A stretch of DNA of 64,000 nucleotides from a virus (taxonomy: Duplodnaviria > Caudoviricetes). The position numbers and the translations under genes were made by a program. This document shows, one piece after another, positions 46,146 through 50,846 of the stretch. Where the stretch lies: IMG/VR virus record IMGVR_UViG_2932385599_000003, positions 19,378 to 83,377 of that record. One strand, written 5' to 3'. Under the pieces are notes generated by a model. It saw only the letters and a program-made list of their open reading frames with translations, did no database searches and was not told the origin of the DNA. The first letter of the stretch is position 1, and every line of letters begins with the position of its first letter.

Positions 46146-46394
46146 ACGGTCGTACGCACGTCCGATGACCTGGATATCTGATGACAAGTCCACTGATCCG
46201 ACACGACTTCCAGGGGAGGAAGACAGGTGACGAGGTCAAGGGGTAGGCTGCGCCTTGCGCCAGACGACCACTCAGGTTCACGGCGCGCGCAGAACAACAA
46301 AACGGCCTCGCTCCCCCGGCTGGTAACCGGGATCGACGCGAGGCCGGCCGCCAACCTCACAGACAGGTGACGACGTGACGAAGCGTACCCGCCC

Positions 46395-46934
46395 ATGCGG
46401 GCAGACAGACAGTGGGACCCGAGACTCCGGCGTGAACATCACACCGCCGTCGAGCACGGGCCCCGCCACCACAACCCCCGCCCCCGCATGAGCGCGGTCG
46501 TCCGGCAGCTCCGCCGGACCACGACTGTCGACGGCCAGCCGATGGGCGTCGAGCTGGCGGCGGACTACTGCGAGTGCAACCGCGGCCCCGTCATCGGCAT
46601 CGTTCAGTACACCGATCGGCAGGTCCGGTTCTTCTCCCTGGACAGCTGGCAGGCGAGCACGCATCACGACGCCGCCGACCTCCGCTGCGTCGACTGCCTC
46701 GCTGAGGCAGCCTTGGCGGTCGCCAACGGCACGGTCCGCGAACGGATGCAGAAGCTGTCGCGTCAGCGCGCCGAAGGGATGCAAGCGCTGATGCGGACCA
46801 ACGCCATGCGACGGGAAGCCGGACTGCCGATCGTCCCGGCCATCATCCCCGAGGGTAACGACTGGCCCCTCACCCAGACTTCTGCGCCTGTTCCGGCGCA
46901 GACCCCACCAACTGATGGAGATCAAGTGACGTAG
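46395..46934 (+). CDS. Hypothetical Cys-containing protein upstream of rep
   Basis: CEC and CVDC motifs; start uncertain. Confidence 0.55.
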   Translation: MRADRQWDPRLRREHHTAVEHGPRHHNPRPRMSAVVRQLRRTTTVDGQPMGVELAADYCECNRGPVIGIVQYTDRQVRFFSLDSWQASTHHDAADLRCVDCLAEAALAVANGTVRERMQKLSRQRAEGMQALMRTNAMRREAGLPIVPAIIPEGNDWPLTQTSAPVPAQTPPTDGDQVT

Positions 46935-46957
46935 CCCTTATCGGGCGGGAGGTCCCT

Positions 46958-47129
46958 GGGCCCCTTGGCGGGGGCTCATCCTCTACCGCCTGGCCGCTGG
47001 TGTTGGCGCACCGTGCGCGGCCTTCATTCCACGGCCCGGAGTTGGCGCTCCGAGCTAAGGCCCGACTCTCAGATCCGGTTTGGCGACCGGGCCCGAGGTG
47101 TCGAGCGAGATCAGGTTCTCGGCAGAACC
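46958..47129 (+). ncRNA. Structured rep leader: five periodic hairpins with UUGGCG/UCGGCA loops
   Basis: Loops at 46965, 47003, 47042, 47080 and 47119, each closed by a different stem. Confidence 0.65.
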
Positions 47130-47187
47130 CCGAAGTCCCCACCGGGGGCCTTCGTGCATTCACGCGTCCAGTGAAAGCAGGTACATA

Positions 47188-48588
47188 GTGCCGTACGAGC
47201 ACGCTACTTGTCAGCTTGAGCACGCCCGCATGGGCGTTTCGTCCCCTATTTCCCCCACCGTCGGCGGCATCGAGTGCCCCGAAACGCAGCTCCGGGTGGC
47301 ACCCGAGCAGCAGTGGCTCGGCACCACCACCGGCCGGATCGCCCCCGACCCGTACTCGTGGATGCAGGCCGTGCACTGGGTCGGCGGCTCCGGCCTCTAC
47401 ACCCCCTCGCAGGAGCACGGCCCGAAGTGGGGGCCGACCACGGCCCTCATCGCGCAGGAGATCTCCGCGCTCGGCGAGTGCCGGCCGTCCGTCGGCTACC
47501 TCGCGCGGAAGCTCGGCCTGTCCGAGCGGACCGTGAAGTACCACCTGGCGATGCTGCGGGAGGCCGGGCTGCTGGTGTACCGCAGCAAGGGCACCCGGCT
47601 CTCGGGCCGGGTCCGGCAGGCGTCCGTGTACGAGCGGGTCATCCCCACGGCGTTCGATGAGGCGCTCGGCATCCGGACCGTGCAGCGCGACGAGGACGCC
47701 CCGGCGTACACGCGGGTCCCGGTCGGCATCGCCGAGACGGGCCGGAAGCTGATCGGGAAGCTCGCGAAGAAGGCCGCCCGCAAGGTCCGCCGCCGGAAGC
47801 GGACATCCCGGACTCGTTCGCAAGCCTCACGTTGCACCCCAATGCAGGGTGGTACCTCAGGTCTCTCCACTGCCGGTACTTCCACCGTTCCCTCTGAGAG
47901 CAAGCTCGCAAGCGGGCAGAGGAAGTCCCCCACCCCGAAGAAGCCCAACCGCGCGCCGCAGGCCCTGAACCGGGTCGGCCGCCGCTACCAGCTCGCCGGC
48001 GAGCTCATCGCCCAGGTGCCGTGGCTGGGCCACGCCTCCCGCCCGCGCATCGCGTGGATCGTCCGGCACGTCGCCGACGCCGGCTGGACCGCTCTAGAGA
48101 TCCAGGCCGTCGCCGAAGCCACCCCCCTCACCGCCGCCGACGTCCGCCGCCCGTCCGGGATGCTCGCCCACCGCCTCAAGGGCGCCGCCGACCTGTTCAC
48201 CACCCCGGAGCGGCGCCGCACCGCCGTGGTGGCGTGGCAGGAATCCCGCACCGCAGAGCAGGCCCGCCACCGCGCCTTCGACAACCAGGTGCAGCAGCAG
48301 CCGGTGCGCATGTCGGTGCGGCGCCTCGTCAACGAGGCGTGCGCCCAGGTCGCCGCCGCCGAGGCGGAAGGCGCCGTCGAGTACACGGCCAGCAGCACCA
48401 GCAGCATCGACGACCTCGACCGCACCACGGTCCTGCAGATGCGCGCCGCCGCCGCAGCCGACCACGCCCTCATCCACACCGCTCTCGAGGTCCTGGGCGA
48501 GACCGACACCCGCCGCCTGTACACCAACCGGCTCGTCGACCTCGCCCTCACCACCGCCGCCCAGCAGCCCGCCCCCGCCGCGTTCTGA
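47188..48588 (+). CDS. Putative replication initiator (RepA-like, winged helix)
   Basis: PSVGYLARKLGLSERTVKYHL...AGLL HTH; followed by DciA-like and parAB; start may be 47230. Confidence 0.65.
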   Translation: MPYEHATCQLEHARMGVSSPISPTVGGIECPETQLRVAPEQQWLGTTTGRIAPDPYSWMQAVHWVGGSGLYTPSQEHGPKWGPTTALIAQEISALGECRPSVGYLARKLGLSERTVKYHLAMLREAGLLVYRSKGTRLSGRVRQASVYERVIPTAFDEALGIRTVQRDEDAPAYTRVPVGIAETGRKLIGKLAKKAARKVRRRKRTSRTRSQASRCTPMQGGTSGLSTAGTSTVPSESKLASGQRKSPTPKKPNRAPQALNRVGRRYQLAGELIAQVPWLGHASRPRIAWIVRHVADAGWTALEIQAVAEATPLTAADVRRPSGMLAHRLKGAADLFTTPERRRTAVVAWQESRTAEQARHRAFDNQVQQQPVRMSVRRLVNEACAQVAAAEAEGAVEYTASSTSSIDDLDRTTVLQMRAAAAADHALIHTALEVLGETDTRRLYTNRLVDLALTTAAQQPAPAAF

Positions 48589-48603: not shown

Positions 48604-49407
48604 ATGCCCGACACCTCGCAGCCCGCGGGCGCGGACCTCGCCCGCCAGGCCCTCAACGCCTACCGGGCCAAGGCCGCCAACACCCCCACCGGGCCCGGCC
48701 GCAAGCCCCGCCCCCGCCCGCGCCGTACCGACCGCGGCAGTGGCCGCGACCCGATCGGGTTCGGCGCGCTCCTCACCCAGCTCGGCGCCGAGCAGGGCTG
48801 GACCACCAGCCTCGACGGCGGGAGCATCCTCGACCGGTGGGACGAGCTGTGCCCCAGCGCGCTCCTCGGGCACGTGCAGCCCGTCGCCTACGACCCGGAC
48901 AAGGGACGGCTCGACCTCCGGCCCGCCTCCGACGCGTACGCCGCGCAGCTGCGCCTCCTCGGCGGGCAGCTCGCCCGGCACCTCAACGACCGCCACGGCC
49001 GGACCACGGTGCGCAGCATCCGCATCCTGCCCGTCGGCACCCTCACCCCGACCGCGCCCCCGCCCGCGTCCGGCCGCGACGAGGAGGACGCTCCGGTCCG
49101 GACCCGCGAGACCGCGTCCCCCGGCTACCGGCGGGCGCTCGCCGCCGCCCTCCAGCACAAGCCCGCCCGCGACACCCTCCTCGATGAGCGGATCCGCGCC
49201 GCCGTCGACGCGTCCGACCGGTGGCTCGCCGACCCCGCCAACCGGCAGCCCGAGACCGCGTTCACCGACGGAATCGCGGCACGCGAGCAGGACGTCGAGG
49301 CCGCGGGCCCGCCGCCCGGCAGCCTTGAGGCCAGCATCCAGGCCGCCCTGCGCCACAAGCACACGGGGAACAGGCGGGAGCCGCGCCGCCTCTTCCAGGC
49401 GTCGTGA
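48604..49407 (+). CDS. DciA/DUF721-like helicase-loader protein
   Basis: DLARQAL...RDP...GW...RWDE...AYAAQLRLL...LN...VRSIRI. Confidence 0.75.
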   Translation: MPDTSQPAGADLARQALNAYRAKAANTPTGPGRKPRPRPRRTDRGSGRDPIGFGALLTQLGAEQGWTTSLDGGSILDRWDELCPSALLGHVQPVAYDPDKGRLDLRPASDAYAAQLRLLGGQLARHLNDRHGRTTVRSIRILPVGTLTPTAPPPASGRDEEDAPVRTRETASPGYRRALAAALQHKPARDTLLDERIRAAVDASDRWLADPANRQPETAFTDGIAAREQDVEAAGPPPGSLEASIQAALRHKHTGNRREPRRLFQAS

Positions 49408-49670: not shown

Positions 49671-50846
49671 ATGGCATCACCGTACCCCCAGGGAGACCGG
49701 GAAAAGGTAGCGTCGAAGCTGCCGCCGAGCCTCCGTCAAGAGCTGAAGATCCGGGCAGCCGAGTACAGCCTGGACATCCAGGACGCCGTCACCACGGCCA
49801 TCACCACATGGCGCGAGACGCCCGGCGGAGCCCCGGCCGACACCACCGGCGCCGAGTCGTTCAGCACCTGGCTGCCCGCCGGCCTGTACGACGACTTCAA
49901 GGAGACCTGCACCGGGCGCGGCATCTCCTACGTCCAGGGCCTCGCCCAGGCCGTACGCCGCTGGCTCGACGCGAACCCGTCGCCCGCCGACCGGCCCGCG
50001 GGCGGCATCCCCGAACGGAAGATCATCTGCAACCAGAAGGGCGGCGTCGGCAAGACCGCCATCGCCGCAGGGACCGCCCAGGCGTACGCCGAAGCCGGCA
50101 AGCGGGTCCTCCTCGTCGACTACGACCCGCAAGGACACCTCAGCGACCAGCTCGGCATCGACCAGATCGAGCCGGGACACGACAGCCTCGTCTCCCACAT
50201 GTGCGGCGAGAGCGACCAGGACCTGCGCGACCTCCTCGTCACCGTCGACGACGAGCGGTACGGCAAGCGCCTGGACATCCTCCCCTCCTGCTTCGACGGG
50301 TTCCTCCTCGACGCGAAGGTCGCCATCAAGGCCGCCCAAGCCCGCGGCTACCAGAAGGAATCCGCGCTCGAGCGCGCCCTGGCCCCCGTCGAGGGCGACT
50401 ACGACGTCGTCGTCATCGACTGCCCCCCGAGCCTGGGCATCGCCATGGACGCCGCGCTGCACTACGGACGGCGCCGCCAGGGCGAGCCCGCCATGAAGTC
50501 CGGCGTCATCATCCCGGTCCTCGCCGAAGACTCCTCCGCCACCGCCTACGGCATGCTCGCCGGGCAGATCCAGGACCTGTGCCTCGACCTCGACCTTGAG
50601 ATCGACTACCTGGGCCTCGTCGTCAACCTCTACGACAGCCGCCGCGGCGTCATCGCCACCTCCTCCCTGAAGCAGTGGCGGGAGCTCGGCGAGCCGCCGG
50701 TCCTCGCCGTCATCGGCGACCTCAAGGAGCAGCGCGAGGCGGTCCGCAAGCAGATGCCGCTCCTGTCGTACGCCCCCAGGTCGGAGCAGGCCGACCTGAT
50801 GCGGCAGATCGCCGGCACGCCCCGTGAGAAGGGCGGCCGGGCATGA
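49671..50846 (+). CDS. parA: ParA partition ATPase with N-terminal tandem RHH-like domains
   Basis: NQKGGVGKT, VDYDPQG, IDCPPSLG. Confidence 0.93.
   Translation: MASPYPQGDREKVASKLPPSLRQELKIRAAEYSLDIQDAVTTAITTWRETPGGAPADTTGAESFSTWLPAGLYDDFKETCTGRGISYVQGLAQAVRRWLDANPSPADRPAGGIPERKIICNQKGGVGKTAIAAGTAQAYAEAGKRVLLVDYDPQGHLSDQLGIDQIEPGHDSLVSHMCGESDQDLRDLLVTVDDERYGKRLDILPSCFDGFLLDAKVAIKAAQARGYQKESALERALAPVEGDYDVVVIDCPPSLGIAMDAALHYGRRRQGEPAMKSGVIIPVLAEDSSATAYGMLAGQIQDLCLDLDLEIDYLGLVVNLYDSRRGVIATSSLKQWRELGEPPVLAVIGDLKEQREAVRKQMPLLSYAPRSEQADLMRQIAGTPREKGGRA

Follow-up and report, generated by a model that had tools for sequence, protein, structure and literature searches.

Covarying hairpins with a shared hexaloop precede the rep gene of a pZL12-like element and may form an antisense-controlled leader cassette

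Among plasmids whose replication is governed by RNA, ColE1 relies on loop-loop kissing between a sense and an antisense transcript (RNA II and RNA I) through three different loops, has no Rep protein and uses RNA II as the primer. The IncFII CopA/CopT pair and the Inc RNA of IncI-alpha (ColIb-P9), both of proteobacterial plasmids, instead use a single 5'-UUGGCG-3' recognition loop with a U-turn (YUNR) in the rep leader, where translation of a leader peptide is coupled to control of rep. The portions of PMC4485353 available to us describe a countertranscript upstream of the repC initiator gene in repABC plasmids, the YUNR loop rule for antisense RNAs and, as an established precedent, loop mutations that create new incompatibility groups. 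Here we describe an array of hairpins directly upstream of rep in a 64,000-nt stretch of DNA (the window, to which all positions refer unless another range is named) from IMG/VR record IMGVR_UViG_2932385599_000003. The element, a Streptomyces phage-plasmid, is an 83,377-bp single contig of 72.5% G+C, akin to Streptomyces plasmids of ~85 to 92 kb and to the plasmid-phage pZL12. We tentatively propose that the array lies at the heart of a portable, cis-acting regulatory cassette of ~330 nt (~46880-47215), in which rep would be controlled at the RNA level by a countertranscript through multivalent loop-loop kissing.

The array occupies the 253-nt gap between the stop codon of the upstream open reading frame (ORF) and the start of rep, on the same strand as the coding sequence (Table 1). 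Four of its hairpins (hp1 to hp4) present the loop TTGGCG on perfect apical stems of 4 to 5 bp, each of a different sequence, and the fifth (hp5) presents TCGGCA; successive loops are spaced 38, 39, 38 and 39 nt apart. An initial annotation of the window had described these five hairpins with the same stems, loop positions and spacing, and the description is confirmed both by the sequence and by minimum-free-energy folds, in which all five form on either strand and four are prolonged into long imperfect stems. The cluster is beyond chance. The window holds 431 hairpins that combine a 6-nt loop with a stem of 4 bp or more; just four of these have the loop TTGGCG, all of them in the array and within 120 nt, and these loops account for four of the 11 copies of the hexamer in the window. 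Second-order Markov simulations (n = 200) gave a largest same-loop cluster per 200 nt of one hairpin in 123 cases and two in 77, never three or four. No other TTGGCG-loop hairpin exists in the whole 83,377-bp plasmid, whose plus strand carries 15 copies of TTGGCG against 59 of CGCCAA, a strong strand asymmetry. The array is not a plain DNA repeat; a repeat search of the region returned a single 18-nt pair at 83% identity. Overall folding energy of the 301-nt region is ordinary (plus strand, z = -1.44, with 10 of 100 shuffles as good; minus strand, z = -1.50, with 8 of 100). An Rfam search of 46300-47800 at E values up to 10 gave no match over the array (46943-47129) and three chance-level matches (E at least 1), two of them inside the rep coding sequence. 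The third, to che1, scored 22.6 bits (E = 1; gathering score, 54.1) on the minus strand at 46837-46907, a stretch that overlaps both a further hairpin, hp0, which precedes the array, and the module's left edge.

A Rep-based search gave 113 relatives in species genomes, 80 of them retained, along with 16 IMG/VR contigs measuring 44 to 95 kb; L-numbers (L001, L006 and so on) denote the loci or sources of these relatives, L081 being the phage ZL12 record. Arrays, taken as at least two hairpins with motif loops, were flagged in 31 of 95 sources scanned, every true array lies at the homologous place, and conservation of the array extends over pZL12-like plasmids and phage-plasmids of Streptomyces. 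The conserved module runs from ~45 nt before a common stop codon to about rep codon 20, spacers included. At the hp0 position, relatives keep a hairpin with other stems (ccgtggc/gccacgg, cgcgc/gcgcg, tgcgc/gcgca) and other loops, and the structured module therefore begins before 46958. A PLSDB search with 801 nt around the array found 97 plasmid records at 65 to 80% identity (94 from Streptomyces and 3 from Kitasatospora), with two matching records in some single strains, and 63 nt matched the phage ZL12 record.

The stems covary. Within the TTGGCG-type group, two-sided changes occur in 8 of 50 predicted pairs, among sequences too similar to tell much. Across array types, a MAFFT alignment misaligned hp1, hp2 and hp4, and stems were extracted by anchors instead, with mis-assigned rows excluded (hp3, L084 and L093; hp4, L095, L009 and L093; hp5, L007, L017, L089, L095, L027 and L009). 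Extracted in this way, the 31 rows of hp3 contain 12 distinct 4-bp stem tops, of which 11 are Watson-Crick throughout, with cross-combinations never fully paired, while all six stem variants of hp4 are paired and all five of hp5 are Watson-Crick (mostly GGTTC/GAACC). An hp3 alignment of 19 distinct sequences contains two-sided changes at five of six lower pairs; 91.2% of its cells are paired compared to 80.8% after shuffling, its covariation score of 0.302 (0.099 shuffled) was reached by none of 500 shuffles, and slid partners pair in at most 43%. Because the stems change across array types yet stay paired, the hairpins are selected as folded single strands, whether of RNA or of DNA. The initial annotation had held that structure and loop, rather than a DNA repeat, are conserved, and had named covariation in homologues as the check; the covariation found bears this out. 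Its grouping of five UUGGCG-type hairpins holds for four. The fifth keeps its stem and leaves its loop free (21 different loops in 27 rows), bearing the motif of its array in a few relatives (CTGGCG in L089, CGCCAG in pZL12 and L086), and is best seen as a structural hairpin of a different class rather than a loop-bearing member.

Loops share a core within one array and differ between elements. The TTGGCG loop is found in the window and 15 relatives; L006 and L094 have TTGACG, and L012 combines it with TTGGCG; CGCCAA is found in pZL12 and seven others; and TTGCCG with TGCCAC, and CTGCCA or TGCCAG, are found among L001, L004, L017, L027, L084 and L090. A distant Rep clade has comparable arrays 500 to 900 nt upstream of the Rep body with loop motifs of its own: TTGGCA or CTGGCA (L032-L034, L042, L074), TGCCAG (L020, L036), TTGACA or CTGACAA (L038, L050, L055, L057) and TTAGCCG (L062). 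For both TTGGCG and CTGGCA, some elements carry the motif itself on the plus strand and others its exact reverse complement (CTGGCA becomes TGCCAG in L020, L027 and L036), and orientation is mostly uniform within one array. For hp2, the loop is reversed on an identical stem (ggtg-TTGGCG-cacc and ggtg-CGCCAA-cacc); as hairpin order and spacers are unchanged, it is the loops that turned and not the whole array. Registers are mixed in some arrays and YGNCR, the core, is itself a degenerate palindrome, and inversion is not required for every strand-switched loop. A YUNR motif on one strand is carried by 100 of 136 array loops compared to 89 of the plasmid's 574 remaining hexaloop hairpins, an excess that is descriptive and not independent evidence, as the arrays were found via these loop motifs. 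A loose-pattern scan of IMG/VR matched at least 117 stretches; among the matches listed, hairpin clusters of this type occur in L157 and L193 only, and L130 and L138 differ. In these last two, which are unrelated viral contigs, TTGGCG-loop hairpins recur at intervals of 72, 360 and 576 nt, probably as a different repeated element or a coding repeat.

What reads the loops is constrained by comparison with Rep. Loop orientation and type change seven or eight times on the Rep tree, no fewer than with shuffled labels, and the recognition helix of the Rep helix-turn-helix (HTH) is identical across loop types. The Reps of L006 (TTGACG) and L085 (CGCCAA) are identical at 394 of 438 positions, and those of L090 (TTGCCG) and L091 (TTGGCG) at 386 of 427. 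Conversely, pZL12.20c (L081, 2284-3895), to which the N terminus of the window Rep is homologous, is 33% identical to it over the first 180 amino acids (aa) and has a different helix and an unrelated C-terminal part, while its first ~25 codons and entire upstream hairpin module are conserved, with CGCCAA loops. The control cassette seems to pass from one kind of Rep body to another. We rejected Rep, acting through its HTH, as the loop reader, since loop type follows neither Rep, its tree nor its recognition helix; the possibility raised in the initial annotation that Rep reads the array is opposed by the same lack of co-variation.

These comparisons bear directly on plain double-stranded DNA iterons or operators, in which 6-bp sites would be bound head to tail by Rep or a repressor and the flanking dyads would be incidental. 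Four co-oriented hexamers at regular spacing directly upstream of rep, and a Rep with a winged HTH, speak for such a model. We nevertheless hold it highly improbable. Stems kept paired by covariation while their sequences differ are not needed for binding of double-stranded DNA. Iterons typically measure 17 to 22 bp, and merely 6 nt are common to the copies here. Spacing varies between array types: the 38- to 39-nt period is confined to TTGGCG-type arrays and L027, and other arrays have periods of ~46 to 50, 44 to 46 or 27 nt. The loops also lack co-variation with the Rep helix, and iterons read by Rep are unlikely because near-identical Reps carry different loops and the divergent pZL12 Rep carries CGCCAA loops on the same module. 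As the period is not kept, an array phased for an oligomeric protein, an idea of the initial annotation, is no feature of the family.

Other partners for the loops were considered. Pairing with the stretch after TTGTCAGC in rep fits L083, L092, L017, L090 and L038 and fails in L089, L091 and L016, and was dropped; pairing of UGGC loops with the CCA end of tRNA is opposed by the TTGACG arrays; and a role as -35 boxes was rejected, as no -10-like hexamer was seen by eye 17 nt downstream of any loop. No fixed complementary partner site for the loops was found within -1.5 to +2.8 kb of rep, and the ORFs upstream are unrelated between elements. The simplest partner, one that changes automatically with the loops, is a transcript of the opposite strand. 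The sole hairpin in the plasmid with a complementary loop, ccgg-CGCCAA-ccgg, lies at 945-958 within a small Cys-rich ORF (MTCWFCGADNPPGANRCGFCNH..) and is within chance expectation, given the 59 occurrences of that hexamer in the plasmid.

Several signals around the array point to RNA. Dissimilar upstream ORFs enter the module and end at one common codon, sharing a tail, ..QTPPxxGDQVT*, that is encoded by the module itself (46890-46934). The last sense codon before the common stop specifies Thr in 30 of 31 relatives, using ACG, ACT, ACA and ACC; the mini-ORF at the left edge opens with a start-like codon (GTG, ATG or TTG) and closes with TAG or TAA. Because the upstream ORFs all stop at this codon, ribosomes would end 9 nt before hp1. 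In L002, L094 and pZL12, the open frame ending at the common stop has merely 7 to 31 codons. On the rep side, a weak hairpin is followed by a T-run, CTTTT(T), that lies 31 to 43 nt before the rep start in 22 of 32 sources (threshold, 4 or more T in 6 nt). Such a run is unusual for DNA of 72% G+C, the copy in the window is degenerate (CCTTCG), and the weak hairpin with its T-run looks like an attenuator or terminator.

The same signals could serve a protein. Here, the plus-strand RNA hairpins would be repeated sites for an RNA-binding protein of the element or host (an antiterminator or attenuator, a translational operator or a CsrB-like decoy) that sets read-through into rep. Protein-sponge RNAs and ANTAR leaders do use repeated loop motifs, and several hairpins with a common loop and free stems, followed by a hairpin and U-run before the rep ribosome-binding site, suit this model, as does the placement of the array in a transcribed, translated setting. 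We consider it decidedly unlikely: no candidate protein co-varies with the loops, given that Rep does not and the upstream ORFs are unrelated, and the reverse-complement motifs of other elements would demand transcription of the other strand. The lack of an Rfam match over the array also speaks against it. In ANTAR targets, a pair of hairpins carry hexaloops whose first letter is A and whose fourth is G, and the second hairpin overlaps a terminator; the loops here break this rule, with T as the first letter and G, A or C at position 4. Nothing in these data links the array to a WYL protein, a possible binder named in the initial annotation.

A further signal lies at the start of rep. The two most conserved blocks, ATAGTG (47185-47190) and TTGTCA (47208-47213), are exactly 17 nt apart in 36 of 36 sources and include the rep start codon and codons 7 to 10. 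At 47206-47217 the sequence T TGT CAG CTT is invariant, with codon 8 being TGT in 30 of 30 and codon 10 CTT in 29 of 30. Elsewhere in the same genes, TGC outnumbers TGT by 135 to 3 and CTT encodes 44 of 1203 leucines. Fixation of these rare codons means that something besides the protein constrains rep codons 7 to 10. Read on the minus strand, the blocks form TGACAA-N17-CACTAT, whose variants CAAGAT, CAATAT and CAACAT retain A2, A5 and T6; we infer a promoter-like motif pointing into the array.

These observations can be joined in the antisense reading that we favour. The plus strand would be transcribed from upstream, with ribosomes translating to the common stop at 46934, and the RNA between that stop and the ribosome-binding site of rep, whether leader or intercistronic, would hold the five hairpins, with the start GTG at 47188 close behind. 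A countertranscript would start at ~47178 from the minus-strand motif within rep codons 1 to 10 and run back through the array. Sense and antisense hairpins would first make contact by hexaloop kissing, with the U-turn (YUNR) on one of the two RNAs, and pairing would then block translation of rep, the 5' end of the antisense RNA covering the Shine-Dalgarno stretch; it may also favour the hairpin and U-run 31 to 43 nt before the start codon. As an antisense target should, the stem-loops (46943-47129) lie in the leader just upstream of the rep start at 47188 and have covarying stems. With identical loops that are not self-complementary, every sense hairpin could nucleate on every antisense hairpin, and intramolecular kissing would be avoided. 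As one stretch of DNA would encode both RNA partners, altering a loop would call for no change of protein and would yield a new compatibility type. The comparative pattern, in which Reps 90% identical carry different loops, is consistent with the loop sequence as an incompatibility determinant. The hairpins, their covariation, the loop patterns among relatives, the reading frames and the constraint on rep codons 7 to 10 are observed; both transcripts, their kissing and its regulatory outcome are what we infer. The comparative data agree best with one of the functions offered by the initial annotation, control of copy number through an antisense RNA that reads the array. The annotation's alternative of a plasmid-to-lytic switch is unsupported, the same array being present on plasmid records of ~300 kb (L020, 319,676 bp) and related arrays on contigs of 200 to 350 kb.

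A number of points weigh against control by a countertranscript. A simple antisense pair does not require identical loops, nor do known antisense systems, and the rationale for uniformity given above is a matter of argument. TTGCCG and TGCCAC loops (arrays of L001 and L090) have no YUNR on either strand, and the mixed registers of some arrays fit no better. G.U pairs conserved on the plus strand (T.G in hp2 in 16 of 18; G.U at the base of hp3 in 18 of 18) would become C.A mismatches in the antisense hairpins. A simple promoter and terminator scan of 46300-47700 returned 0 promoters and 0 terminators; it missed the minus-strand motif because the putative -10, CACTAT, matches TATAAT at just 3 of 6 positions, which is itself a weakness, and no terminator was found for the putative antisense RNA. 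Conservation of the blocks at the rep start has in part another explanation, as they also supply the ribosome-binding site, the start codon and further codons. Finally, in Streptomyces theta plasmids the non-coding stretch beside rep has usually proved by experiment to be a Rep-bound origin, as far as the consulted sections of PMC3583192 describe.

This last point leads to an origin element made of single-stranded DNA. A melted or extruded strand would fold into four or five hairpins, and the identical loops would serve as sites for a replisome factor, such as a host primase or helicase loader acting on a G4-type signal, or be held by Rep in a structure-specific manner; loops moved to the other strand would then mark a switch of the strand used. 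The YTG in the loops resembles primase start triplets. The hairpins are stable as DNA (-4.4 to -13.1 kcal/mol), and a DciA-like helicase-loading gene follows rep. A motif that occurs on either strand and is mostly uniform per array is natural for DNA. Stem mismatches show no bias between strands (G.T 7, A.C 8); the absence of a G.T over A.C preference suits DNA and is also expected if both strands must fold. The site next to rep is the usual origin site of Streptomyces theta plasmids, and the RepA of pWTY27 binds a long inverted repeat for which the authors suggest stem-loop recognition (PMC3583192, in the sections consulted). We regard this explanation as unlikely, however. The element-specific loops change without a matching change in Rep, and a constant host reader gives no reason for them to change jointly. 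Apical stems of 4 to 5 bp with 6-nt loops make poor cruciforms, and the array is bracketed by plus-strand translation signals. No obvious AT-rich unwinding stretch lies nearby (AT peaks at 47% over 40-nt windows, with 27.5% as the background), no DnaA box was seen by eye, and cumulative GC skew carries no origin signal, falling steadily over most of the plasmid with no turning point near rep.

Returning to the antisense reading, a bolder form of it, which we hold doubtful, would make the array an 'address-loop' cassette: four or five hairpins bearing one non-self-complementary U-turn hexaloop, with nucleation at up to ~16 loop pairs. The hexamer would be a rewritable compatibility barcode that changes in all hairpins together, flips strand when the loop is inverted inside its stem and recombines between unrelated Rep bodies across Streptomyces plasmids and phage-plasmids. 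We leave a small chance that the explanation lies outside countertranscript control, the single-stranded origin, the protein-bound RNA and the iterons alike.

The genes around the array are collected with its parts in Table 1. The upstream ORF (46395-46934, with its TAG stop at 46934) has no Pfam match. We place the rep start at GTG 47188 rather than ATG 47230 because the GTG or TTG of the block ACAT(AG/CT)(G/T)TGC is in frame and stop-free in 30 of 30 main-clade sources. In these 30, the distance from that codon to the SWMxAVHW motif of Rep is 52 to 82 codons and the frame is always open. The annotated rep starts of pZL12 and the PLSDB relative L098 are at about the same position, and ATG 47230 has no conservation among relatives. 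Rep scored 22.3 bits against the RP-C N-terminal Pfam model, under the cut-off of 24.4. Its AlphaFold model (pLDDT 78.2) matched solely winged-helix structures; Foldseek returned ArsR/SmtB-like winged helices alone, at E of 0.07 or above, and a profile search of PDB sequences gave nothing significant (best E, 0.38). The C-terminal part is helical, with no known relatives in the profile and structure searches. With the DciA homologue, the element appears to carry its own helicase-loading helper.

Table 1. Parts of the hairpin module and neighbouring genes in the window (energies in kcal/mol)
Feature	Position	Strand	Loop position	RNA energy	DNA energy	Remarks
hp0, tctgcgcc-TGTTCC-ggcgcaga	46881-46902	+		-15.3		In 3' end of upstream ORF
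Module left edge	46917-46934	+				SD-like (Shine-Dalgarno-like) GGAG 46917-46920; GTG ACG TAG 46926-46934, upstream-ORF stop, readable as two-codon mini-ORF
hp1, apical gcccc-TTGGCG-ggggc	46943-46991	+	46965-46970	-30.1	-13.1	Long hairpin
hp2, apical ggtg-TTGGCG-cacc	46992-47022	+	47003-47008	-19.3	-11.1	Outer stem GGCCGC..GCGGCC
hp3, apical cggag-TTGGCG-ctccg	47034-47055	+	47042-47047	-12.6		C.A mismatch 47036/47053
hp4, apical ccggt-TTGGCG-accgg	47060-47106	+	47080-47085	-22.8	-8.2	Long hairpin
hp5, ggttc-TCGGCA-gaacc	47114-47129	+	47119-47124	-6.4		Structure-only hairpin; loop free in relatives
Hairpin cgaag-t-cccc-ACCG-gggg-gc-cttcg	47131-47154	+				Attenuator/terminator-like place in relatives
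rep ribosome-binding stretch AAAGCAGG and start GTG	47174-47190	+				Start codon 47188-47190
Promoter-like motif TGACAA, 17 nt, CACTAT	47185-47213	-				TGACAA 47213-47208; CACTAT 47190-47185; putative start ~47178, leftward into array
rep	47188-48588	+				Winged-helix initiator-like protein, 466 aa; HTH_20 and HTH_36 matches
DciA (DUF721) homologue	48604-49407					Directly 3' of rep
ParA gene	49671-50846					After DciA homologue

Some further features of the rep start were seen in relatives. The start block (CATAGTG-N17-TTGTCAGC, peptide V......CQL) lies 80 to 177 codons ahead of the Rep body in L018, L031, L038, L041 and L027. In the distant Rep clade and L027, this block is out of frame with the Rep body (offset 2), with zero to two intervening stops; a frameshift, a small ORF of its own or a sequencing problem could account for this. 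Many distant-clade loci also have a 16-bp near-palindrome, ggcgg-CGCCGG-ccgcc (variants CACCGG and CGTCGG), at a fixed distance of ~71 nt before the Rep match.

pZL12-type phage-plasmids and related large plasmids are common in Streptomyces, and a repeated hexaloop as the sole element-specific letters would be a simple, testable determinant of compatibility and a handle for compatible Streptomyces vectors. If the RNA reading is true, the kissing-loop principle, including the hexamer familiar from enterobacterial plasmids, would extend in multivalent form to replicons of high-GC Gram-positive bacteria; if the DNA reading is true, the array would represent an origin of an unusual sort, one recognised in the form of folded single strands. 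Our literature searches found no description of the hairpin array; a paper on pZL12 replication, which reportedly identified a replication locus (repA), may cover the stretch as part of a minimal replicon.

Compared to the described systems, the locus shares with ColE1 RNA I/RNA II a series of consecutive stem-loops upstream of a replication function; unlike ColE1, it has four or five hairpins with one common hexaloop ahead of a rep gene, and it is known here from DNA alone. With the IncFII and IncI leaders it shares the same hexanucleotide loop in a rep leader and a translated stop or mini-ORF, here 9 nt before hp1, whereas its loop is fourfold, variable (TTGACG, TTGCCG, CTGGCA) and found on either strand. 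Rows of hairpins on one strand also recall G4-type initiation signals and CsrB-RsmZ decoys, the latter repeating one loop motif; unlike in those systems, no primase or RNA-binding partner is indicated here. Its place directly upstream of the initiator gene matches that of the repABC countertranscript, an incompatibility determinant according to the portions of PMC4485353 available to us. The repABC countertranscript, in contrast, is short with one hairpin, and the Rep here matches RP-C below the cut-off and is encoded in the order rep, DciA, ParAB. Streptomyces theta origins (pWTY27, pFP1/pFP11, SCP2) likewise have a non-coding stretch rich in inverted repeats beside rep, but, in the sections of PMC3583192 consulted, theirs contain protein-protected direct repeats of 7 to 8 bp, whereas here the stems are free, the loops common and Rep does not co-vary. 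By analogy, the workings of the array would be most like those of ColE1 RNA I/RNA II and the UUGGCG-loop systems, and its position most like that of the repABC countertranscript. What sets it apart from ColE1, IncFII/IncI and repABC is one loop repeated fourfold, changing jointly and switchable between strands, in a cassette common to unrelated Rep bodies.

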